A DNA stretch of 64,000 bases. Source: Elusimicrobiaceae bacterium (GTDB taxonomy: Bacteria; Elusimicrobiota; Elusimicrobia; Elusimicrobiales; Elusimicrobiaceae). The position numbers and the translations under genes are program-made. Of the stretch, positions 1-46,487 are shown piece by piece (position 1 is the first letter of the stretch; each line of letters opens with the position of its first letter). The notes below the pieces were generated by a model. The model ran no database searches, was not told where the DNA came from, and worked only from the letters and a program-made list of their open reading frames with translations. Location: assembly GCA_045595305.1 (NCBI GenBank), contig JAZOAE010000029.1, forward strand, positions 35,002 to 99,001. Direction: 5' to 3'.

Positions 1-221
1 ATACCTATGATTAAAATAACCACTAGGAGTTCTATAAGCGTAAATCCATTAAAAAAGTTCTTCACAAAATTTCTCCACTCCGAACAATGGGTATTGTAAC
101 AAAAATAAAGGACATTGGAAACACTTTCCCCAAGCGTTTATAAATAATAACCCTTTATGGTTATCTTTTTCTGGGCCTAAAGGCACGTGCAATTCCACTG
201 GGAATTTGTTAGGATAGTGGC

Positions 222-3793: not shown

Positions 3794-4396
3794 TTATCTC
3801 TTTTTGAAAGTTTCCAACTTTTTCTTGGCTAGCGGTTCGCCTTGTTTGGCAGCCATTATATAATAGTGCAGGGCCTCTTTTTCGTTCTTTTCTACGCCCA
3901 CTCCGCGCTCATATAAGTCCCCCAGCAACGTTTGTGCTAGCGGACTTTTTTCTTCGGCAGCAGATTTTAAAATCTGCGCACCGCGTATCTCATCTTTCTC
4001 AGTTCCCATGCCTTGCAAATAACATACCGCCAGATTCACGCGAGCCTCAAAATCTCCCATCTTAGCGGCTTCTTGATAACAATAAAAAGCTTTCTCGGGA
4101 CTTCTTTCACAACCCTTCCCCTCATTATAAAGCCCCGCCAAAGCGACCATGGCACGTATATTACCCTGTTTGGCCGAAGTGTCAAACCAATTAAATGCTT
4201 GGACATAATCTTGTTTGACCTGTTTACCCTTGTAATAAAAGTACCCCATATCGTATTGAGCCTTTGCATTGCCGGTAGAGGCAAGTTTGAGAGTCTTGTC
4301 AAAAGGACTTGCCGAAAATTTGCGCAAGAAAAACCACGCCAGCGCTAAAATAAATATAAACGTAATTCCCATATGTGTTTCAACCATAGGTTCCAT
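3794..4396 (-). CDS. Sel1-like (TPR) repeat protein with N-terminal membrane anchor
   Basis: Sel1 repeats GNAKAQYDMGYFYYKG...QD..A..WF..SA.QG and AQTLLGDLYERGVGV. Confidence 0.9.
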   Translation of the reverse strand: MEPMVETHMGITFIFILALAWFFLRKFSASPFDKTLKLASTGNAKAQYDMGYFYYKGKQVKQDYVQAFNWFDTSAKQGNIRAMVALAGLYNEGKGCERSPEKAFYCYQEAAKMGDFEARVNLAVCYLQGMGTEKDEIRGAQILKSAAEEKSPLAQTLLGDLYERGVGVEKNEKEALHYYIMAAKQGEPLAKKKLETFKKR

Positions 4397-12157: not shown

Positions 12158-12269
12158 TGTACCTAGATTATAGCAAAATCAAGCCGCCCTCTATCCATAG
12201 AATCAAACATCTAACCCTTTTTTGCGGGTGCACAATGGGATGAAATTTGCTTTAATGGGATGGTCTTAA
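12158..12269. repeat. 112-bp intergenic direct repeat, copy 2
   Basis: Near-identical to 9754-9865; offset 2,404 bp. Confidence 0.95.
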
Positions 12270-12289
12270 AATCAATAAAGGAGAAGCTC

Positions 12290-13384
12290 ATGAAAAAATG
12301 GTTAGGCTCTGTGTTGGCAGCCACATTAATCGCTGCTGCAATTCCTCCCGTACAAGCTTGTACCGGGATCGCCATCAACGCCGCCGATGGAACTAAACTT
12401 CTCGCTCGCACAATTGAATGGAAAGGCGGCAACTTAAACAGCAAACTCATCATTTTACCGCGCGGTATGCAAAACACCGCGCTTACCCCGGCCGGAAAAA
12501 ACGGCCATACCTGGGTCAATAAATACGGCGCCGTTGGTGCCAGCACGGTAGCCCCGGAATTTGTGACTGAAGGCGTCAACGAAAAGGGGCTTAACGTAGG
12601 GATTTTCTATTTTGCTAATGTAGGTAGTTTAACCCCCTACAATCCCCAACACCGCAAGAAATCCGTCAGCGACGGGGAACTGGTACGCTATATGCTTACC
12701 AACTTCGCCACTGTGGATGAAACCCTCAAAGGGCTGGAAAAAATTGAAATCATCCCTATCGGCAAGCCCGATAAAAACGGTCACTATGCCACTGGACACT
12801 GGCGCATTAGCGATCCGACCGGACGTAGTGTAGTGTTGGAAATTACCGACGAAGGAAAACGCCATGTGTATGAAAACAATCTGCGCGTGTTCACCAACTC
12901 GCCCAGTTTCCCGTGGCACCAGGCCAATTTGAATAACTACATTCACCTCTCCGGCGGGGAAACCCCCAACAAAACGGTAGGCGGAGTGAACTTGTATTCG
13001 TTTGGCGGCGGAACAAATTTAATGGGCTTGCCCGGGGATTTGACCCCGCCCGCCCGCTTAGTGCGCGCCTTCTTCTACGTACAAAGCGCCCCTGTACCTA
13101 AAGATAAATATGCGGCGGTAACGCAAGCGTTTCATATCTTAAACAACTTTGATTTGCCGATCGGCGCGGAATATGCCCCCGGTGAAACCATCCCGGATAT
13201 GCCCAGCGCTACCCAATGGACAGCGGTCAGCGACATTACGCACCCAACGTTTTATTACCGCACGATGTACAACTCGGCCATTCGCAAAATTGATTTAACG
13301 AAAATTGATTTTGATACCGTAAAATACCTCGTGCTGGATATGGATTCCAAGCCGCAAGAAACATTCTACGAACTAACGTTTTAA
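12290..13384 (+). CDS. Exported choloylglycine hydrolase / penicillin V acylase family Ntn-hydrolase
   Basis: Signal peptide ending VQA directly before the nucleophile Cys (CTGI), plus ARTIEW, EGVNEKGL, VFTNSP and LPGDLTPPARLVRA. AAGGAG RBS before ATG 12290. Confidence 0.92.
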   Translation: MKKWLGSVLAATLIAAAIPPVQACTGIAINAADGTKLLARTIEWKGGNLNSKLIILPRGMQNTALTPAGKNGHTWVNKYGAVGASTVAPEFVTEGVNEKGLNVGIFYFANVGSLTPYNPQHRKKSVSDGELVRYMLTNFATVDETLKGLEKIEIIPIGKPDKNGHYATGHWRISDPTGRSVVLEITDEGKRHVYENNLRVFTNSPSFPWHQANLNNYIHLSGGETPNKTVGGVNLYSFGGGTNLMGLPGDLTPPARLVRAFFYVQSAPVPKDKYAAVTQAFHILNNFDLPIGAEYAPGETIPDMPSATQWTAVSDITHPTFYYRTMYNSAIRKIDLTKIDFDTVKYLVLDMDSKPQETFYELTF

Positions 13385-14270: not shown

Positions 14271-16502
14271 TTATCCAAGAGTCTTCTTCTCTAAGAGTTG
14301 TTCAAAGGTAGCAACGGTTACCGGCCGGCTGAAAAAATAGCCCTGCGCCAGGTCCGCCCCACAGTTGCGCAAAAACTCAGCTTGTTCGCGACTTTCTACC
14401 CCTTCGGCCACTACTTTAACATCCAAAGTTTTTATCATCTTGATTACCCCCTGGATCACTTTTTGTGCCCGCGGGTTCTCTTCAAAACTGGCTAAAAATT
14501 CTTTGTCAAGTTTAATGCTGTCAAACTTGAGTTCTTTGAGTACATTCAAAGAAGAATAACCTGCCCCAAAATCATCCATTGCCACAGGGAAGCCATATAA
14601 GTGTAACCCGGCAATCACTTCCTGCGCGCGCTCTAAGTTATTAAAAATAACGCTTTCGGTAATCTCGGCCTCCACGAATGAAGTCGGCACGTTGTTACGC
14701 GCCATAATGCGGCGTATTTGCGGAATGAAACGTGCGTCGTTTAGATGAAGACGCGAAAAGTTGACCGCCAAGGGTACCACCGGTTTCCCCGCACTACGCC
14801 ACTTCGATAATACTTGAGCAACTTCTTCCAAGATGTACATATCCAATTTTAAGATAAATCCGTTGCGTTCAAAAAGCGGTATAAATTCGTCCGGACGGAC
14901 GGTATGTCCGTCGTGGTTCCAACGCACCAATGCCTCTGCTCCGCAAATTTCCCCTGTACCGAAATCACACTTAGGTTGCAAATAGATTTCGAATTCGTGA
15001 TTTTCCAATGCGGCTTCCATACTGTTTTCAATTTGCTGTTCGGTTACAATACGTGTACGGTCAGCGGCTTCGTAAAATTCGCATTTATCGAACGTACGCT
15101 GTTTGGCACGTTCCAACGCTAAGTGAGCACGGTCCAACATAATGTAAAAAGGAATATCTTCGGCAATTTCATAGATACCAAACGCAATATCCAGCATAAT
15201 GCGAGAATCTTCAAGCGTGCAATCTCGCTTTAATTGCGTAGCCAATGCTTTAAGACGTTTTACAAAAGCAGTGCGTTCCTTATATTCAAGTAACAGCACA
15301 AAGTTATCCGCAGATAAACGGCAAAAAGCTTCTTCGGGTGCCAATTCCCGTTGAAGTACTTGGGCTACGCGTTTAAGCACTTCGTTGCCACGCTCATAAC
15401 CATGTAAATCGTTAATAACTTTGAATTTATTAATGTCAAAGATAACCAGCGCCGCTTGATGATACAAACCATCGAGTTTATCATCAAATTGTTCACACAT
15501 TCGGTTAAAATTATCCGCTCCGGTGAGTGAATCCACAAAGGCTGTCGTGAACAACCGGCGGTTACTGTCTTCACGCAAACGCATAATGAAAAACAACAGA
15601 AAATAAAACACTAAAAATACTACACCAAATAGAATTAACGATAGTTTAGCTACTTGGGCAGCTTGCTCCTCCACGTGCTTAACGGGAACCGTTGCTACCA
15701 TATACCAACCATTCACGGATACCGGTACAAACTGCAAAAAGTTATGCAGGTCGTCTTCCGTATAGTATCCTACCAGCAAAGACTCTCCCCGCAAGACTGC
15801 TTTGCGAACTTCTTCTAACGTTGAAGGAGTATCCAGCCTGACATGTTCTAAGACGGAGAAAATATTTTTCGTGGGTTCTTTTTCAGAAGATAAAATAGTA
15901 TTTCCAAAACGATCAATAATGAAGGAATTCTCTTCGTTCTCCGTAGCAAAAAACCCCAATACATTTTTGTAATATTCCTCTTTTTGAACGGCAAACAGAG
16001 CTCCCACCGGGGATCCGTCATTGGGATCGAGCGGTATTGCCTGAACAAGAATGGAGGAAGGATATTTTTCCTTTTCCCGCGGACGAACGGTCAGGTAAAA
16101 TTTTCCGGCAGCAGTATTTTTCAAAATATCACGCAATGCCTCAGAACTAAGGGAAGAAGAGGTTGAAGAATAAAATGTACGACCGTCTTGGAGTGCTAGC
16201 CCCAGCAAATGAAAGTGTTCATTTTGATCAAAACGTGCTAACATTTCAGACAGAGAAGATTCTTCCTTCCACGGGTAAGAATCTTCAAAAGAGAGGGCAG
16301 TGGCAGCCAAGATTTCGTGATCAGTTTGTACTAAACGGTCAAAATCATCGGCAGAATCTTTCGTAGTATCAGCGATATGGGTACGGACGTCTTGCTCTAA
16401 TAGAATAGTTACTTGCCGCCAATAAAAAAATACGCCCGCCGTTATGAGAAGGGCAGCAATGGACGAGAAGATAATAAACGGACGGAAAGAAATTTTTTGC
16501 AT
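14271..16502 (-). CDS. Membrane c-di-GMP phosphodiesterase (periplasmic Cache-like sensor, degenerate GGDEF, EAL)
   Basis: Two TMs flank a sensor region. GGDEF site is SADNF; EAL domain has EALVRW, DDFGAGYSS, KLDK and EGVE. Confidence 0.9.
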   Translation of the reverse strand: MQKISFRPFIIFSSIAALLITAGVFFYWRQVTILLEQDVRTHIADTTKDSADDFDRLVQTDHEILAATALSFEDSYPWKEESSLSEMLARFDQNEHFHLLGLALQDGRTFYSSTSSSLSSEALRDILKNTAAGKFYLTVRPREKEKYPSSILVQAIPLDPNDGSPVGALFAVQKEEYYKNVLGFFATENEENSFIIDRFGNTILSSEKEPTKNIFSVLEHVRLDTPSTLEEVRKAVLRGESLLVGYYTEDDLHNFLQFVPVSVNGWYMVATVPVKHVEEQAAQVAKLSLILFGVVFLVFYFLLFFIMRLREDSNRRLFTTAFVDSLTGADNFNRMCEQFDDKLDGLYHQAALVIFDINKFKVINDLHGYERGNEVLKRVAQVLQRELAPEEAFCRLSADNFVLLLEYKERTAFVKRLKALATQLKRDCTLEDSRIMLDIAFGIYEIAEDIPFYIMLDRAHLALERAKQRTFDKCEFYEAADRTRIVTEQQIENSMEAALENHEFEIYLQPKCDFGTGEICGAEALVRWNHDGHTVRPDEFIPLFERNGFILKLDMYILEEVAQVLSKWRSAGKPVVPLAVNFSRLHLNDARFIPQIRRIMARNNVPTSFVEAEITESVIFNNLERAQEVIAGLHLYGFPVAMDDFGAGYSSLNVLKELKFDSIKLDKEFLASFEENPRAQKVIQGVIKMIKTLDVKVVAEGVESREQAEFLRNCGADLAQGYFFSRPVTVATFEQLLEKKTLG

Positions 16503-35404: not shown

Positions 35405-36058
35405 ATGCGAAAATTTGTTTTAAGTTTATTAGTGGTAATATCAGTAGGTATAGGATGTACGGAAGCACAAATGCAACAGATTACATCTACCTTTTCAACC
35501 AGCCAATATAATGCGCAAACGCGATCTGTGCAACAAACAACTTCCCTTTCTAATACCCAGGCCACAACTGTAGAAGGGGATACTCCTCTTATATTGGCTA
35601 GTCGGCAAGGCGATTTAAAAACCGTTCAAGCTTTATTAGCCAGCGGCGCGGATGTAAATGCAACGAATAGCCAAGGAACTACGGCACTTATGGCCGCCAG
35701 TGAAGCAGGATACGCTGATATTATTAAAGCATTAGGTACTAACAAACAATTGGATCTGGAGGCTACAGACCGAAATTTTGATACGGCTCTTATGCTGGCG
35801 GTACGCAAACAGCAAGAGCCCGCCGTAAAGGCTTTGTTGGATTTAGGAGCTAATGTCAATTTTATGAAAGCAGGCATGTCTGTTCTTATTGCAGCTAGTT
35901 ACCAAGGAAATGCAGAAATTGTGCGGGACTTATTAGATGCTGGGGCCAATGCAGATTGGGTAGATGAAAATAACGAATCCGCGTTGGATGTGGCCGTGAA
36001 TACCAATAAGCCAGCTGTAGCAGCCGTATTGCGAGAATATCAGAATAAAAAAATGTAA
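35405..36058 (+). CDS. Exported ankyrin-repeat protein (possible lipoprotein)
   Basis: Signal peptide ending GIGC. Ankyrin repeats GDTPLILAS, GADVNA...GTTALMAAS, DTALMLAV, GANVN. Confidence 0.9.
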   Translation: MRKFVLSLLVVISVGIGCTEAQMQQITSTFSTSQYNAQTRSVQQTTSLSNTQATTVEGDTPLILASRQGDLKTVQALLASGADVNATNSQGTTALMAASEAGYADIIKALGTNKQLDLEATDRNFDTALMLAVRKQQEPAVKALLDLGANVNFMKAGMSVLIAASYQGNAEIVRDLLDAGANADWVDENNESALDVAVNTNKPAVAAVLREYQNKKM

Positions 36059-41610: not shown

Positions 41611-41954
41611 AATTTTTTAAGCACTTCCTGTGTAAGATTTTCTTTTTTAAGTTGTTCCAGGGCATCGTAAATTCGTTCATTTTTAAGAAGCTGCACTCCA
41701 AGGGAAGCAATCTTCCCACCTGTAGACATTACAAAAAGCATGAATACTGCAAACAACCCCATATTGGCCAACACGCTGGTTGTTTCCATGGGGATATTCA
41801 TCAACCCCGCTTGCGTCTGCACGGTTAAATCCGCGAAATGCACAATAGCCAACACTTCTTCTCCGCGAATAAAGACCTTATACATACCACTTAGGGCAAA
41901 CAAAATAATCAAAAGCCCTGTGCACAATAATAGGTAGCTCAAGATTTTATGCAT
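41607..41954 (-). CDS. Small two-TM hypothetical membrane protein
   Basis: GGAGG RBS before ATG 41954 (MHKILSYLL); its stop overlaps the start of the lipid kinase gene. Confidence 0.7.
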   Translation of the reverse strand: MHKILSYLLLCTGLLIILFALSGMYKVFIRGEEVLAIVHFADLTVQTQAGLMNIPMETTSVLANMGLFAVFMLFVMSTGGKIASLGVQLLKNERIYDALEQLKKENLTQEVLKKL

Positions 41955-42026
41955 AAATCCTCCCCCCACAGGCGCGTGCATATATGTAGTATAATATATT
42001 ATAACCTTTTTACCAGGAATTTTGAT

Positions 42027-44630
42027 ATGAAAACTAGCACGCAAATCCGCAATGGATACTTAGAATTCTTTAAATCGAAGGGGCTGCCCATATTGCCATC
42101 CAGCTCGTTAATTCCACATTCTGACCCAACTTTACTATTCACTTCTGCAGGGATGGTACAATTCAAGGCTAACTTCTTGGGAATTGATAATTCCCTCAAA
42201 AATGCGGCCACTTGTCAAAAATGCGTACGTACTACCGACATCGACAGCGTAGGTTTTACCGAGCGGCATCTCACGTTTTTTGAAATGCTGGGAAACTTTT
42301 CGTTTGGGGATTATTTTAAAAAAGAAGCCATTTCCTGGGCGTGGGAATATTTAACAAAAGTGCTAGGCTTGCCAGCCGAAAGACTTTACGTCAGCATTTA
42401 CAAGGGGGGTATTGCGCAGCGCGATGCCGAAGCTTACGAGATTTGGAAACAATTTGTCCCCGAAGATCACATTTTCGAATTAGGCGAAGCGGATAATTTT
42501 TGGACTATGGGCCCTACCGGCCCCTGCGGCCCCTGCTCGGAGATTTATTATGATTTTGGCGACAAAGGTTGCAAAAATCCACATTGTGATATTACGTGTG
42601 AGTGCGGACGCTTTGTAGAAATTTGGAACATTGTATTTGAAAGTTATAACCGTCAGGAAGACGGTACATTTAAGACTCTGCCACACAATAACATTGATAC
42701 GGGCATGGGGCTTGAGCGCCTTTGTATGGCAATGCAAGGGGCCAAAAACGTATTCGAAACAGATTTATTCACTCCGCTTACCACTCAGGCCAAAAAAGAT
42801 TTGCACATTGAGGGAAACACACGCGAGGAAGTAGCTGCTTTACGCATTATTGCGGACCATGTACGCAGCTCCAGTTTCTTAATTGCGGAAGGCATTTTGC
42901 CTTCTAATGAAGGACGCGGCTATATTTTACGTCGCTTAATCCGCCGTGCTGTGCGTTATGCCAAACTTATGGGGAGTGATAAACCCTATCTCTATACACT
43001 AGTGCCTGTCGTGCAACAAATTTTTGCTGGATTGTATCCTGAAATTGACAAAAATGCAACGCATATCCAAAATGTGCTTAAGCAAGAAGAAAAAGCCTTC
43101 CGCAAAACGCTGGTAACCGGGGAAGAAAAACTTTCCGAACTCCTGGCCAGCGGTGCCAAAACCATTAGCGGAGAAGATGCTTTTCATTTGCATGAAACGT
43201 ATGGTTTCCCATTAGAACTTACCAAAGAGATTGCTGCTGCGAAAAGTGTAAACGTAGATGAAAAGGGATACGAGGCAGCCAAAGCGGCCGCGCAAGAAAA
43301 AAGCCGCTCGTACGCAGATGAATTTAGCAAAGAGAAAGTAATTGTGATGCAAAAATTGGAAAACACCCTGCCCGCTACGCAGTTTGTGGGGTACGATACG
43401 CTTACGCACACGGCGCATGTGCTTGCTTTGTTAAATGAAAAATTTGAACTAGTGGACACGTTAAACGGCAACGGATATGCGGTATTTGATATTACACCTT
43501 TTTATGCCGAGTCCGGCGGACAAATCGGGGATCAAGGAACTGTTTTAATAGATGAAAAAGAAATTGCTCACATCACAGATGTGCAAAAGCCTTTAGGAAA
43601 AATTTTCCTGCATACGTTAAACGGGACACTTTGTAAAGGGGATAGCGTGACCTTGCAAGTCAACGCTGATTTGCGCAAACGTACCATGGCCAATCATAGT
43701 GCTATTCACTTAATTAATGCCGCTTTGCGCCAAGTATTTGGCACAACCGTACATCAAAGCGGTTCCTACGTATCGCCGGAACGTTTCCGTTTTGACTATA
43801 CACTTTCCAAAACGCCCACGGCCGAAGAATTAAACAAAGCCTGGGCCATTGCCAACAAAGCCGCGCAGGATGCGTTACCGGTTACTTGCCAAACGCGTCC
43901 GTTAGCCGATACTGAGAAATTAGGTGCGGTTACGCTCTTAGGTGAGACGTATGCGGATCCGGCCCGCTTTGTGTTAATGGGAGGCAGTTTTGAGCATCCC
44001 GAGCAAAAATACAGTTTGGAACTCTGTGCCGGAACACACGTTAAAAACACAGCCGAAGTAATTACCGTGCTCGTATTAAAAGAGGGATCTGTTTCGGCAG
44101 GGGTGCGCCGTATTGAAGGCGTAGCCGGATATGCGGCCGTAGATTATTTGCAAAATGTTCACACGCAAGCCGTGCAATTGGCAGCGCGGCTGGATGTGCC
44201 AACCAAGGACGTATTTACGCGTGTGAATACAATTATGGACGAGCTCAAAGAGGTCAAAAAGCACTACGAGCAATTCCGCCAAAAAACGCTGGCTGCCGGC
44301 GGTGTAAACGAGATGAGTTTTACACTCAAAAACGGCACGACGGTTATTTTACGCAAGGCCGATGAAGCGCAACCCAAAGAATTACGCAACATTGCCGACA
44401 CGGTCGCGCAAAAACAAAAGCAAGCGTTGGTCATTGTCACGTGTGATCGCGAAGGTAAACGTTCGTTTGTGGTCAAAATGGCAGGCAAGTTGCCCAATAC
44501 AGATGCAGTCACCGTCGCCAAGCAATTAGCCGAAGGCATTAACGGTCGCGCCGGCGGGCGGGCAGATTTTGCCCAAGGTGGCGGCGAAGCTAAAGAGCCG
44601 ATGGAAAACCTACTGGCTGCATTGCATTAG
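42027..44630 (+). CDS. alaS: Alanyl-tRNA synthetase
   Basis: DPTLLFTSAGMVQFK, TFFEMLGNFSFGDYFK, IDTGMGLER, editing HSAIH and ELCAGTH, GGRADFAQGG. Start moved to MKTSTQIR. Confidence 0.98.
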   Translation: MKTSTQIRNGYLEFFKSKGLPILPSSSLIPHSDPTLLFTSAGMVQFKANFLGIDNSLKNAATCQKCVRTTDIDSVGFTERHLTFFEMLGNFSFGDYFKKEAISWAWEYLTKVLGLPAERLYVSIYKGGIAQRDAEAYEIWKQFVPEDHIFELGEADNFWTMGPTGPCGPCSEIYYDFGDKGCKNPHCDITCECGRFVEIWNIVFESYNRQEDGTFKTLPHNNIDTGMGLERLCMAMQGAKNVFETDLFTPLTTQAKKDLHIEGNTREEVAALRIIADHVRSSSFLIAEGILPSNEGRGYILRRLIRRAVRYAKLMGSDKPYLYTLVPVVQQIFAGLYPEIDKNATHIQNVLKQEEKAFRKTLVTGEEKLSELLASGAKTISGEDAFHLHETYGFPLELTKEIAAAKSVNVDEKGYEAAKAAAQEKSRSYADEFSKEKVIVMQKLENTLPATQFVGYDTLTHTAHVLALLNEKFELVDTLNGNGYAVFDITPFYAESGGQIGDQGTVLIDEKEIAHITDVQKPLGKIFLHTLNGTLCKGDSVTLQVNADLRKRTMANHSAIHLINAALRQVFGTTVHQSGSYVSPERFRFDYTLSKTPTAEELNKAWAIANKAAQDALPVTCQTRPLADTEKLGAVTLLGETYADPARFVLMGGSFEHPEQKYSLELCAGTHVKNTAEVITVLVLKEGSVSAGVRRIEGVAGYAAVDYLQNVHTQAVQLAARLDVPTKDVFTRVNTIMDELKEVKKHYEQFRQKTLAAGGVNEMSFTLKNGTTVILRKADEAQPKELRNIADTVAQKQKQALVIVTCDREGKRSFVVKMAGKLPNTDAVTVAKQLAEGINGRAGGRADFAQGGGEAKEPMENLLAALH

Positions 44631-44732
44631 CCAATTTGAAACCTTACAACCGTATGTTAAAAACGTACGCTTTTTTGTTATAATTACTATTGACGTTCCA
44701 GATCTGTTAAGTCCGGATGACGAGGAAAACAC

Positions 44733-46394
44733 ATGAAAAAACATACAGGTTTTACACTCATAGAAGTATTGGTAGTTGTACTTATCATCGGCGTATTAAC
44801 CGCCATTGCTGTTCCGCAATACCAAAAAGCCGTACTCAAAAGCCGCTTTAGCAGTTTACTACCCACCACCAAAGCCGTTCGCGATGGCAACGAGGCCTAT
44901 TACATGACACACGGCAGATATGCCCGCCTGCTAAGTGATTTGGACGTAACCGCTACAAACAATAGGGATATGGAACTGGTGCTGGATAATGATTCGGACT
45001 ATTCCCATGTATTAGCTACGAGAACCGATTTAAACGGAAAAAATAATCTTGTGATGTATCAACGGCACAGTGTAAACTTTCCAGGGGAAATACATTGTGA
45101 AGCCTTAGCAGAGGATACACGTGCCAACTGGCTTTGCGAAACGGGAATGCATTCTGTGAAAAGCCTAGGAGAAGTAATCTCTGAAGGATATAACACGTAT
45201 GTAATCGAAGGGACAGGAAATGGGTTAACCCCCGCACAAATGGATGCAGCCAATGCTCCCAGCTGTGATAAGGCGCTTTCTATGGGAGCCACGTGCAGCA
45301 TAACAGAAGACCCGAACACGCACAAACAGACAAAACAGGTCTGTTACAACACGCAAGAGGAACAAGATTATTGCGTTACTATAGAGTTTGATGAAAATAA
45401 TAAGCAAACAAAGCGTGTTACCTGCCTTGAGAATTCATGTGTTGAAGAAACGTATGATGAAAATGGGAAAACCTCTCATAAATATTGCTCCGAAGAAAAT
45501 AGAAGTGAGGATGGAAAATCGTGCGATAGATATGATGAAATAGCAGACTATGTTTATGACGAGGACGGAAATAAAATTTTTGAAGGGTATTGTGATGTGG
45601 AGAGTATGAGCGAAGGTGGACAATCTTGCGATGGTTACTACTCTATAGCCGAATACGAATATGATACGGATGGCAATATCACCTCGGATAAATGGTGCGA
45701 CATAGCCAACATGGATGAGAATGGAAGATCGTGTCTAGGGTATGATGGCATAGGTGACTACAAATACGATGCCTCCGGGAATATGACTTTTGCCGGTTGG
45801 TGTGAGGTCGACGATATAAGTGAAGACGGCCAATCTTGCGCAAGGTATGCGGGTATAGACGAGTATGAATACGATGCGGCTGGGAACCAGACCTCGTACA
45901 AAAATTGCGGTGCAGATAGTATGAGTGAGGACGGAAAGACTTGTGATAGCTATGAATTCATCACTAACCATAGATACGATTCCGTTGAAAACAAGGCCTA
46001 TGATGCAACGTGTTACATCAGTGAAGACGGGCAGTCTTGTGATGGGTATTGGGGCATATCTGAAACTCACTATGATTCTGCCGGGAATATAATTTCTCAA
46101 AGGGGTTGTAACGCAGAGAATATTAACCAAGATACTATGTCCTGTGACAGATATGACACAATACAGGACTATCGATATAATGAAGGGGGCCATCTAATCT
46201 TTGAGGGGGATTGTTACGGTAGCAACCTGAGCGAAGATGGCCGAAGTTGTGAACAATATGGTCGTCACATGGAAGATAACCGAGAGTATACAGATATATA
46301 CGACGAAGATGGGAATATGATTTACTACTGTGTTTGGAATTTGGAACATACAGAATGTACCCCACAATATACCTGGGATAATCTGATGTTTTAA
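44733..46394 (+). CDS. Type IV pilin-like protein with a long C-terminal Cys/YD-like repeat domain
   Basis: G|FTLIEVLVVVLIIG...PQYQKAVLKSR N-terminus, followed by about 8 repeats of C-x11-C-x2-Y-x2-I-x2-Y-x-YD-x2-GN. Confidence 0.85.
   Translation: MKKHTGFTLIEVLVVVLIIGVLTAIAVPQYQKAVLKSRFSSLLPTTKAVRDGNEAYYMTHGRYARLLSDLDVTATNNRDMELVLDNDSDYSHVLATRTDLNGKNNLVMYQRHSVNFPGEIHCEALAEDTRANWLCETGMHSVKSLGEVISEGYNTYVIEGTGNGLTPAQMDAANAPSCDKALSMGATCSITEDPNTHKQTKQVCYNTQEEQDYCVTIEFDENNKQTKRVTCLENSCVEETYDENGKTSHKYCSEENRSEDGKSCDRYDEIADYVYDEDGNKIFEGYCDVESMSEGGQSCDGYYSIAEYEYDTDGNITSDKWCDIANMDENGRSCLGYDGIGDYKYDASGNMTFAGWCEVDDISEDGQSCARYAGIDEYEYDAAGNQTSYKNCGADSMSEDGKTCDSYEFITNHRYDSVENKAYDATCYISEDGQSCDGYWGISETHYDSAGNIISQRGCNAENINQDTMSCDRYDTIQDYRYNEGGHLIFEGDCYGSNLSEDGRSCEQYGRHMEDNREYTDIYDEDGNMIYYCVWNLEHTECTPQYTWDNLMF
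45483..46330 (+). repeat. About 8 diverged 35-aa (105-bp) coding repeats
   Basis: For example YCSEENRSEDGKSCDRYDEIADYVYDEDGNKIFEG / YCDVESMSEGGQSCDGYYSIAEYEYDTDGNITSDK / WCDIANMDENGRSCLGYDGIGDYKYDASGNMTFAG. Confidence 0.9.
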
Positions 46395-46449: not shown

Positions 46450-46487
46450 CCCGCCCTTTTACTCCAAGTTTAAGGGCGGGCCTTTTT
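46450..46487 (+). terminator. Terminator after the pilin-repeat gene
   Basis: cccgccctt...aagggcggg followed by ccttttt. Confidence 0.65.

Follow-up and report, generated by a model that had tools for sequence, protein, structure and literature searches.

A predicted modular minor type IV pilin with a cysteine-paired, open YD-type repeat sheet in a gut Elusimicrobiaceae bacterium

Introduction

What is a type IV pilin head doing at the front of a long, acidic, cysteine-rich repeat module? The question is raised by a gene in a 64,000-nucleotide stretch of DNA (hereafter the window) from a sheep-gut Elusimicrobiaceae bacterium. Databases label the encoded protein and its relatives only as 'prepilin-type N-terminal cleavage/methylation domain-containing protein', and no current family model names them. 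The repeats of the module resemble YD repeats, which are the hallmark of Rhs-type toxins. Pilins that combine a carrier head with a grafted module have already been described as the class of 'modular pilins' (Raynaud et al. 2021, PMC8179133), with PilB and PilC of Streptococcus sanguinis, which carry a vWA and a lectin module respectively, as modular type IV pilins (PMC8179133). Here we describe the architecture of the window protein, the family to which it belongs and the role that we propose for it.

Results

An intact gene with its own predicted expression signals

The open reading frame is intact, begins with ATG and encodes 553 amino acids at 44733..46394 of the forward strand, exactly where a preliminary description of the window had placed it. 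The features of the gene are collected in Table 1. The gene is apparently monocistronic. No RNA-seq run containing it was found. An allele about 98% identical is found in a sheep-gut metagenome in the same alaS-pilin-hydrogenase neighbourhood; it has zero indels relative to the window gene, and 7 of the 9 listed within-gene SNPs are synonymous. We count this near-identical allele in favour of a real, maintained gene, together with the gene's own ribosome-binding site, its terminator and a promoter-like site of a kind whose count is not above shuffle expectation.

Table 1. Features of the pilin gene and its flanks (window positions).
Feature	Position	Strand	Basis or remark
Terminator-like hairpin and T-run at the end of upstream alaS	44651..44669	+	Terminator scan, sequence
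Promoter-like site, TTAAAA / 16-nt spacer / TATAAT with upstream TG (extended -10)	44657..44684	+	Consensus match only
Ribosome-binding site GAGGAAA, just 5' of the ATG	44722..44728	+	Sequence reading
Complete CDS, modular prepilin, 553 aa	44733..46394	+	ORF, Pfam/NCBIfam profiles, structure model
Leader peptide MKKHTG, aa 1-6	44733..44750	+	Pfam/NCBIfam; predicted prepilin-peptidase cleavage after G6
Pilin head, aa 7-165	44751..45227	+	AF2, Foldseek, sequence matches to solved pilins
Linker helix and three short proto-repeat hairpins, aa 166-251	45228..45485	+	Sequence, model
Eight ~35-aa units, aa 252-532	45486..46328	+	Acidic Cys-x11-Cys loop, then YxYDxxGN beta-hairpin
C-terminal cap, aa 533-553, CVWNLEHTEC..W	46329..46391	+	Sequence; Cys pair C533/C542
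Intrinsic-terminator-like hairpin, 9-bp GC-rich stem, then T-run	46450..46487	+	-21.7 kcal/mol, z = -4.8

A prepilin signal and a T4a-like head

The N-terminus, MKKHTG/FTLIEVLVVVLIIGVL (the slash marks the predicted cleavage point), scores above the cut-offs of both Pfam N_methyl (31.4 bits versus 21.2) and NCBIfam IV_pilin_GFxxxE (TIGR02532; 27.5 bits versus 16.3). It has the layout of a class III signal, with a short basic leader up to Gly, a hydrophobic stretch, Phe at +1 and Glu at +5 (MKKHTG/FTLIE). Numbering of the predicted mature protein would make F7 residue +1 and E11 residue +5; both of these, and G6 as well, show little or no variation among 80 relatives. An AF2 model of the head (pLDDT 93.2, pTM 0.83) places a long alpha1 helix (residues 9-60) on an antiparallel beta-sheet of four main strands and two further short ones, with a C-terminal cysteine pair, C122-C135, that is invariant among relatives; this is the alpha-beta roll of type IV pilins. 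The best Foldseek matches of the head are to Neisseria PilE (1ay2 and 5vxx, from N. gonorrhoeae and N. meningitidis), with probabilities of 0.99-1.0, TM-scores of 0.39-0.49 and weak E-values of 4e-3 to 3e-2. Sequence matches of the protein in the PDB are to pilins only. The head is more than a mere signal and models as an entire globular pilin domain, T4a-like and strongly conserved, and the normal prepilin head of about 165 aa that had been proposed is borne out by both the profile scores and the model.

An acidic module of cysteine-paired repeats

Beyond the head, the protein consists of the proto-repeats and the roughly eight acidic 35-aa Cys/YxYDxxGN units that the preliminary description had listed, and all of these could be mapped. 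The proto-repeats carry cysteine pairs 178/188, 204/214 and 231/236, of which C178, C188, C204, C214 and C236 each show conservation of 90% or more among the 80 relatives. The eight units start at residues 252, 287, 322, 357, 392, 427, 459 and 494, with lengths of 35, 35, 35, 35, 35, 32, 35 and 39 aa in that order; the C-x11-C spacing is present in 7/8 and a strict YxYDxxGN in 5/8. Self-identity at a lag of 35 residues is 0.29, against a maximum of 0.15 across 1000 shuffles, and the 35-aa periodicity is thus far above chance. A 70-aa higher-order duplication had also been suggested, which we do not support: identity at lag 70 (0.254) is lower than at lag 35, and the somewhat closer units fall into the groups 2/4/6 (56-59% identical) and 1/7 (57%), with no others. 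Tandem Repeats Finder detects no repeats in the DNA of the gene, so that the periodicity is visible at the protein level only; units share 45-66% DNA identity, and the repeats are old. The cap that ends the module has a comparable counterpart in relatives (C-x-T-W-N...C..W). The module has a net charge of -59 and a pI of 4.05. The preliminary description had suggested that the SEDG turns could bind Ca2+; what the family as a whole conserves in that loop is a D-G turn, whereas only the window copy is so extremely acidic.

The protein contains 26 cysteines, and pairing them within loops leaves none unpaired. Across the family, 508 of 523 inter-YD segments have two cysteines, nine have none and three have one, which supports the paired-cysteine module proposed earlier. 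Gain and loss of cysteines strictly as pairs fits a predicted arrangement of one disulfide per unit.

The repeats as divergent YD/RHS repeats

On its own, the window protein scores 11.2 bits (E 0.54) against Pfam RHS_repeat (PF05593), below the cut-off of 22, and it does not match the TIGR01643 profile. Its relatives carry the family signal: RHS_repeat is matched in 49/80 (best 9.7e-17) and YD_repeat_2x (TIGR01643) in 38/80. In hhalign, a unit aligns with Cys-less YD repeats over the YD hairpin core (probability 89%), and the extra Cys-closed loop of each unit stays unaligned. We also ran the structure prediction and fold search that the preliminary description had called for. In the full-length AlphaFold model (pLDDT 91.3, pTM 0.76) the module is an antiparallel beta-hairpin sheet as in solved YD proteins, and the top Foldseek matches are the YD shells of teneurins, T6SS Rhs effectors and Tc BC (E 4e-13 to 1e-9, probability 1.0), followed by a second group of OspA open single-layer sheets. 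Global TM-scores to the YD shells are low (0.1-0.27) because the overall shapes differ. Based on the relatives' profile matches, hhalign and Foldseek, the repeats are best described as divergent YD/RHS repeats, and the earlier reading of YxYDxxGN as a YD/RHS-type core is supported. Where that reading had left 'solenoid or sheet' as alternatives, the DSSP assignment and fold matches favour an open antiparallel hairpin sheet, and we reject the beta-solenoid.

The RHS-associated core (TIGR03696, with its PxxxxDPxGL autoprotease) and toxin domains are absent from the window protein and from all 80 relatives, and the C-terminus is a 21-aa Cys-bridged cap in place of a variable toxin. The module has about 12 hairpins in about 380 aa, which falls short of shell closure. 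With the RHS core or a toxin domain in 0/80 relatives, the suggested use as an 'effector scaffold' is unsupported.

One head, many tails

The window protein is one of hundreds of related Elusimicrobiaceae gut pilins that have a single conserved head in common (about 45-67% identity by BLAST) and differ in their Cys-rich tails. Other tails on the same head include Ephrin_rec_like/NCD3G/TNFR-like and VSP-like modules, among others. The genes are scattered among housekeeping genes; the neighbours differ at every homologue locus examined, and we find no shared synteny among these loci. Four pilin-like ORFs lie in the window. In a GTDB genome scan, at least 99 pilin-motif ORFs in at least 76 short loci are present among the matches listed; the loci listed (at least 80) encode mostly 160-aa head-only pilins, and so the scan shows expansion of pilins and not the distribution of the YD fusion. 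Likewise, a search with a two-unit repeat profile returned one fragment match among 560 candidates and is uninformative about distribution.

No pilus-assembly genes are found within the 64-kb window. In another Elusimicrobiaceae genome, a type 4a ATPase of the PilT/PilU kind (411 bits, cut-off 319) is encoded 3.7 kb from a family member, and PilD has been reported in the phylum Elusimicrobiota (PMC8809381).

When 1.84 billion representatives were searched exhaustively, the nearest relatives of the long-loop acidic unit proved to be P0121 (E 6e-38) and P0122 (1e-35), two uncharacterised proteins encoded on one 16,960-bp NCBI contig. Both exceed the Pfam RHS_repeat cut-off (45 and 51 bits versus 22), and a search with P0121 as query returns only P0122 and the window protein. 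P0121 and P0122 share with the window protein the long-loop acidic unit, C-x11/12-C with S-x-DG-K-S-C. Where the window protein has a processed pilin head, they have either a signal resembling that of lipoproteins (…VAMSGC) or just a hydrophobic anchor; therefore, the module works with other anchors.

Discussion

Comparison with known systems

The architecture is that of a modular pilin, with an N-terminal IPR012902 head (residues 1-165) joined to a YD-type module (171-553) of a kind not peculiar to type IV pili. IPR012902 followed by RHS/YD is absent from the 264 architectures of one global modular-pilin catalogue (PMC8179133 Dataset S1), in line with the earlier remark that a described pilin-YD fusion was not recognised. 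What had been suggested as possibly a 'new class' of pilus-borne adhesin is a new type of module and no new class of pilus protein, since modular pilins are known (PMC8179133). Like PilB and PilC of Streptococcus sanguinis, the window protein has a class III signal and a small pilin carrier with a bulky C-terminal module that is not pilus-specific, and its predicted role is tip display and adhesion. Unlike them, its module is a Cys-paired YD-repeat sheet, its host is a diderm gut member of the Elusimicrobiaceae, and its gene stands alone, away from any pil operon, as part of a very large paralogue family of one head and many tails. CofB (ETEC type IVb pili) and ComZ (Thermus) are likewise large minor pilins with all-beta repeat modules after the pilin domain, and these modules (beta-repeat, beta-sandwich or beta-solenoid) act at the tip, where they start assembly or bind a ligand (PMC8179133). 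However, there is no sequence kinship, the CofB and ComZ modules lack YD repeats and regular cysteine pairs, and CofB is a T4b pilin, in contrast to the T4a-like head seen here.

Among YD proteins, the window module shares with Tc BC, T6SS Rhs effectors and teneurins (4igl, 8qjb, 8h8b, 6fb3, 7ban) the YxYDxxG(N/R) hairpins in a continuous antiparallel sheet. Whereas those sheets form a closed cocoon, that of the window protein is short and open, comes without Rhs core, protease or toxin, adds a Cys-closed loop to each unit and has a pilin head as its anchor. The Bdellovibrio bacteriovorus protein Bd0109, which also has RHS repeats (about 13) without protease or toxin regions, is functionally linked to extrusion and retraction of the type IVa pilus and has been proposed to encapsulate Bd0108 (PMC4267844). 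Unlike the window protein, Bd0109 is a separate Sec-signal protein with no pilin fusion and no Cys-pair pattern (PMC4267844).

Proposed role

We propose that the gene probably encodes a modular minor type IV pilin whose open YD sheet, exposed on the pilus, would serve as an adhesin. By the rules of the family, the prepilin would insert in the inner membrane, a PilD-type peptidase would remove MKKHTG, and Phe7 would be N-methylated. The T4a-like head (alpha1 plus the alpha-beta roll with its C122-C135 bond) would then dock the subunit into a type IV filament. From sequence and model, the C-terminal 390 aa are predicted to form a continuous open antiparallel sheet of about 12 YD-type hairpins, in which successive hairpins are joined by a loop of 8-11 residues closed by a Cys pair and the sheet ends in the Cys-bridged cap. 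Given the bulk of the module, the subunit is likely to be of low abundance, and we infer that it sits at the tip of the filament or projects from it and acts as an adhesin, with the Tyr-rich, extremely acidic surface of the sheet as the likely binding face. One head with many Cys-rich tails would diversify the binding of pili in the gut.

Two other readings accept the prepilin signal and place the protein elsewhere. The signal may be a general export or anchor device, with the protein either remaining anchored in the inner membrane or joining short surface assemblies that resemble pseudopili or bindosomes, and the YD sheet acting as a binding element in the periplasm or at the cell surface, or as a wall-spanning one. 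The very many dispersed pilin-like genes per genome speak for this, and as they exceed the needs of a classical pilus, some of their products may not reach pili; the N-terminus also scores equally on models of the T2SS pseudopilin GspG, which 80/80 relatives match, and the nearest module relatives use other anchors, of lipoprotein-like or plain signal-anchor type. Against it stand the full conserved T4a-like globular domain of the head, the invariance or near-invariance of G-1, F+1 and E+5, which are required for processing and assembly, and the PilT-family retraction ATPase in a related genome, and we regard this reading as rather unlikely. Alternatively, the protein could be one of many major pilins in an antigenic or phase-variation repertoire, with whole filaments built from it, as the high conservation of the head over paralogues with differing tails and the PilE-type major pilins among the top structural matches might suggest. 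However, a T4P helix leaves little room for a 390-aa module on each subunit, modular pilins are minor or tip subunits (PMC8179133), and we see neither recombination or inversion signals nor any indel between the two alleles examined, all of which makes this reading improbable.

The remaining readings concern the module. An Rhs-type polymorphic toxin, or a cargo-enclosing YD shell delivered by the pilus, would agree with the Rhs, Tc and teneurin shells at the top of the Foldseek matches; set against this, the window protein and its 80 relatives have no RHS core, aspartyl-protease motif or C-terminal toxin, the hairpins are far too few for shell closure, TM-scores to the shells are low, and no immunity-like gene lies downstream. 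We reject identity as an Rhs toxin, since the core and toxin domains are absent, and consider the wider reading very remote. The cysteines could instead coordinate metal (Zn or Fe), like those of Giardia VSP-type CXXC proteins, in a metal-stabilised or metal-binding surface protein. The host is an anaerobe of the anoxic gut, no Dsb gene is seen in the 64-kb window, and the same head carries sister tails of Cys-rich repeats that resemble VSP or Ephrin_rec_like domains, all of which would suit metal ligands. Yet the two cysteines of a loop lie 8-11 residues apart and are gained or lost jointly, the classical pilin pair C122-C135 is conserved too, and with just two thiols a site could hold a tetrahedrally coordinated metal only with help from neighbouring loops; we judge metal ligation quite improbable.

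Implications

A minor modular pilin of this kind would add a new type of module, a predicted disulfide-paired open YD sheet, to the modular-pilin catalogue, and would extend the use of YD repeats beyond toxin cocoons and teneurins to a binding surface on display. More tentatively, the conserved T4a-pilin head of gut Elusimicrobiaceae could serve universally to carry a large and rapidly diversifying library of Cys-rich surface modules (open YD sheets, ephrin-receptor/VSP-like modules and others), with the T4P machinery as a general system of variable-surface display and the Cys-stapled open YD sheet as a previously unrecognised, non-encapsulating, rod-like adhesin; we see this as possible. The results offer concrete candidates for work on adhesins and their ligands, and the repertoire of one head with many tails in these little-studied, small-genome gut Elusimicrobiaceae suggests that pili are a main interface between them and the host, mucus or other microbes.

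Gene and neighbourhood

The open reading frame claimed in the preliminary description is present, single and intact. With its own promoter-like site, ribosome-binding site and downstream hairpin with T-run, the gene looks monocistronic from its flanking sequence. The neighbours are housekeeping genes, encoding dnaE, a nuclease, a lipid kinase and alaS, as well as an [FeFe]-hydrogenase-like Fe-S protein, DUF2339 and SMC. Elsewhere, the genes for a choloylglycine hydrolase and a GGDEF-EAL protein fit a surface-associated life in the vertebrate gut. Ankyrin and Sel1 repeats, which are eukaryote-like interaction domains, are also encoded by this small-genome gut bacterium.

There are about four pilin-like ORFs in the 64 kb. 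One same-head pilin of 81 aa, comprising signal, alpha1 and head start only, is truncated or a pseudogene. A 167-aa ORF matching Pfam Pilin_GH (9.4e-6) shares 23 nt with the 3' end of the hydrogenase-like gene and has a degenerate N-terminus (GG/MVICLLIVVLIAGVLMIVAFPQYKK) without Phe +1 or Glu +5; it is perhaps a non-canonical pilin or one in decay.

Positions of the pilin gene, its signals and other features in the window
Feature	Position	Strand	Remark
Same-head pilin gene	1-137	-	interrupted by window edge
Two ankyrin-repeat proteins, one Sel1-repeat protein	1279-2121, 35405-36058, 3794-4396	-, +, -	
Choloylglycine (bile-salt) hydrolase family gene	12260-13384	+	
Same-head pilin, 81 aa	13693-13938	-	
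GGDEF-EAL c-di-GMP protein gene	14271-16502	-	
alaS	41949-44630		precedes pilin gene
Hairpin and T-run ending alaS	44651-44669		
Promoter-like TTAAAA-16-TATAAT	44657-44684		TG upstream
RBS GAGGAAA	immediately 5' of pilin-gene ATG		
Prepilin gene	44733-46394	+	553 aa
9-bp GC stem, then T-run	46450-46487		3' of pilin gene; -21.7 kcal/mol, z = -4.8
Pilin-like ORF, 167 aa	47957-48460	+	

A complete pilin head

The N-terminus (MKKHTG/FTLIEVLVVVLIIGVL) exceeds the thresholds of Pfam N_methyl and NCBIfam IV_pilin_GFxxxE, and PDB sequence searches match pilins only (geopilin, PilA, PilE; E 7e-8 to 1e-6), reaching at most residue 108. An AlphaFold2 model of residues 1-175 (64 homologues; pLDDT 93.2, pTM 0.83) has helices at 9-60 and 129-138 and six strands. 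Its best Foldseek matches are full-length Neisseria PilE (1ay2, 5vxx; probability 0.99-1.0, TM 0.39-0.49); further pilins rank below, and E-values are modest. Among relatives, residues G6, F7, E11, C122 and C135 vary little or not at all. This conservation and the PilE matches indicate that the normal prepilin head originally described is, as modelled, a complete T4a-type pilin domain and more than a signal peptide.

A YD-type repeat module

After a linker come three short hairpin proto-repeats (Cys pairs 178/188, 204/214 and 231/236), eight units starting at residues 252, 287, 322, 357, 392, 427, 459 and 494, and a cap (C533/C542). C-x11-C is found in 7 of the 8 units and strict YxYDxxGN in 5. 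The reported 35-aa periodicity is clear, with a self-identity at lag 35 of 0.29, whereas 1000 shuffles reached 0.15 at most. The suggested 70-aa higher-order duplication is not supported, since self-identity at lag 70 (0.254) is lower and only units 2, 4 and 6, and likewise 1 and 7, are mutually somewhat closer. The divergence of the units (26-59% identity in protein, 45-66% in DNA) marks the duplications as old, and no repeats were detected in the gene's DNA by Tandem Repeats Finder. The repeats are acidic, as first noted (module net charge -59, pI 4.05; D+E 22%, Tyr 9%, Cys 6%), and this module is the most acidic of 76 in the family (-15.4 per 100 aa; median -4.8).

Alone, the protein scores 11.2 bits against PF05593 (E 0.54), under the cut-off of 22. 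However, the closest relatives of its module exceed the Pfam RHS_repeat cut-off, and among 80 aligned relatives 49 match RHS_repeat (best 9.7e-17) and 38 match TIGR01643 (YD_repeat_2x). A search of a 1.84 billion-protein library matches P0134, a Cys-less YD-repeat kinase (5.9e-9), and hhalign aligns the YD hairpin core of our unit profile with the units of that kinase (probability 89%, E 2.3e-6), leaving the Cys-loop half unaligned. On these grounds the module probably belongs to the YD superfamily.

The full-length AlphaFold2 model is confident (pLDDT 91.3, pTM 0.76). Each unit forms one long beta-hairpin with its turn at D-x-x-G-N and a short irregular loop between both Cys. In a Foldseek search of the PDB, the top matches are teneurins, T6SS Rhs effectors and Tc BC components (E 4e-13 to 1e-9, probability 1.0, with low TM-scores of 0.1-0.27); engineered OspA single-layer sheets rank next. 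YxYDxxGN had been taken as the YD/RHS hairpin core, and the relatives' profile matches, the fold matches and the hhalign core all agree. We read the modelled module as an open YD-type sheet, neither cocoon nor solenoid. Between the solenoid and the sheet first proposed, the model thus favours the sheet; a beta-solenoid is at odds with units modelled as hairpins and with matches to YD shells and single-layer sheets.

Family, tails and alleles

A full-length search gave 361 matches; those named are Elusimicrobiaceae MAG proteins, labelled solely 'prepilin-type N-terminal cleavage/methylation domain-containing protein'. Repeat number does vary, from 0 to about 16 among aligned relatives. Many further matches have the head alone in common (about 45-67% identity, BLAST), and tails on the shared head include Ephrin_rec_like/NCD3G/TNFR-like Cys-rich repeats and unassigned Cys-rich or acidic regions. 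The head with the Ephrin_rec_like/NCD3G/TNFR-like tail makes up a second modular-pilin architecture of Elusimicrobiaceae that is likewise unstudied. It occurs in P0111 and P0120, relatives outside the window, whose Cys-rich repeats also score weakly against Giardia VSP.

A GTDB genome scan found at least 233 relatives. Among the matches listed, nearly all come from gut Elusimicrobiaceae or Elusimicrobium MAGs, several per genome, with at least 99 pilin-motif ORFs in the 76 loci holding any. Homologues in the loci examined lack synteny, each standing alone amid different housekeeping genes. Exhaustive phmmer with the module alone matched only 30 representatives of the 1.84 billion-protein library. 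The two best, P0121 and P0122, uncharacterised proteins on one contig, have, in place of the pilin head, a lipoprotein-like signal or plain anchor, so the module is portable between surface anchors.

In another species (locus L001, 8001-8130 and 9884-9920; also L017), gene calls give several pilins a conserved N-terminal extension (…GFTLNRHAESSLLSISTA.KAQGRDPEQKPFGMALCK/GFTLIE). The underlying DNA holds a palindrome, CATGCTGAG-N7-TGCTCAGCAT, repeated 3' of the gene and at another locus. This resembles a small hairpin element of the REP type that gene callers have read through, and the real start is probably MALCKG/FTLIE.

The window gene is present in DNA runs of sheep-gut and other gut metagenomes; we found it in no RNA runs. 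A sheep-gut allele (run X1), roughly 98% identical and in the same alaS-pilin-hydrogenase context, has zero indels and hence no change in repeat number. Seven of the nine listed SNPs inside the gene are synonymous, and one, in codon 7 (window 44752), changes F7 to Y; in the mature pilin this is residue +1, a position normally N-methylated.

Interpretation

In 87 proteins of the family, exactly two Cys are present in 508 of 523 inter-YD segments; nine have zero and three have one. The usual loop is C-x8-C, the C-x11-C of the window copy being rarer. Because Cys co-occur and are co-lost within loops, and intra-loop pairing uses up all 26 Cys of the window protein, these sequences point to one bond per loop. 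The pairing implied by the earlier term "disulfide-stapled" is upheld, and we infer disulfide chemistry rather than metal ligation; metal binding by the Cys seems highly improbable.

The evidence best supports a modular type IV pilin as defined by Raynaud et al. 2021 (PMC8179133). As in those pilins, a conserved head would serve as carrier for a grafted module, in this case a highly acidic, open YD sheet stapled by Cys. The role, which we infer, is most probably adhesion, with the protein as a minor or tip subunit. No pilus assembly genes were found across the whole 64-kb window. In another Elusimicrobiaceae genome, one homologue has a PilT/PilU type 4a ATPase gene (411 bits, cut-off 319) 3.7 kb away. 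Display without long pili, through anchoring or a pseudopilus-type assembly, is unlikely, if still worth considering. There is little chance that these are alternative major pilins. An Rhs toxin is effectively excluded, since 0 of 80 relatives have an RHS-associated core or toxin domain. Bdellovibrio Bd0109, an RHS-repeat protein that lacks a toxin and is linked to T4P function (PMC4267844), is a precedent for such repeats, although it is no pilin fusion.

The preliminary description thus rests on a real observation and was largely right on structure. It recognised no described pilin-YD fusion, and none appears among the 264 architectures that PMC8179133 lists with a pilin motif at the N-terminus, where the sole RHS entry has the reverse motif order. 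The modular pilin is a known kind; the YD-sheet module type and the large repertoire of tails are new.
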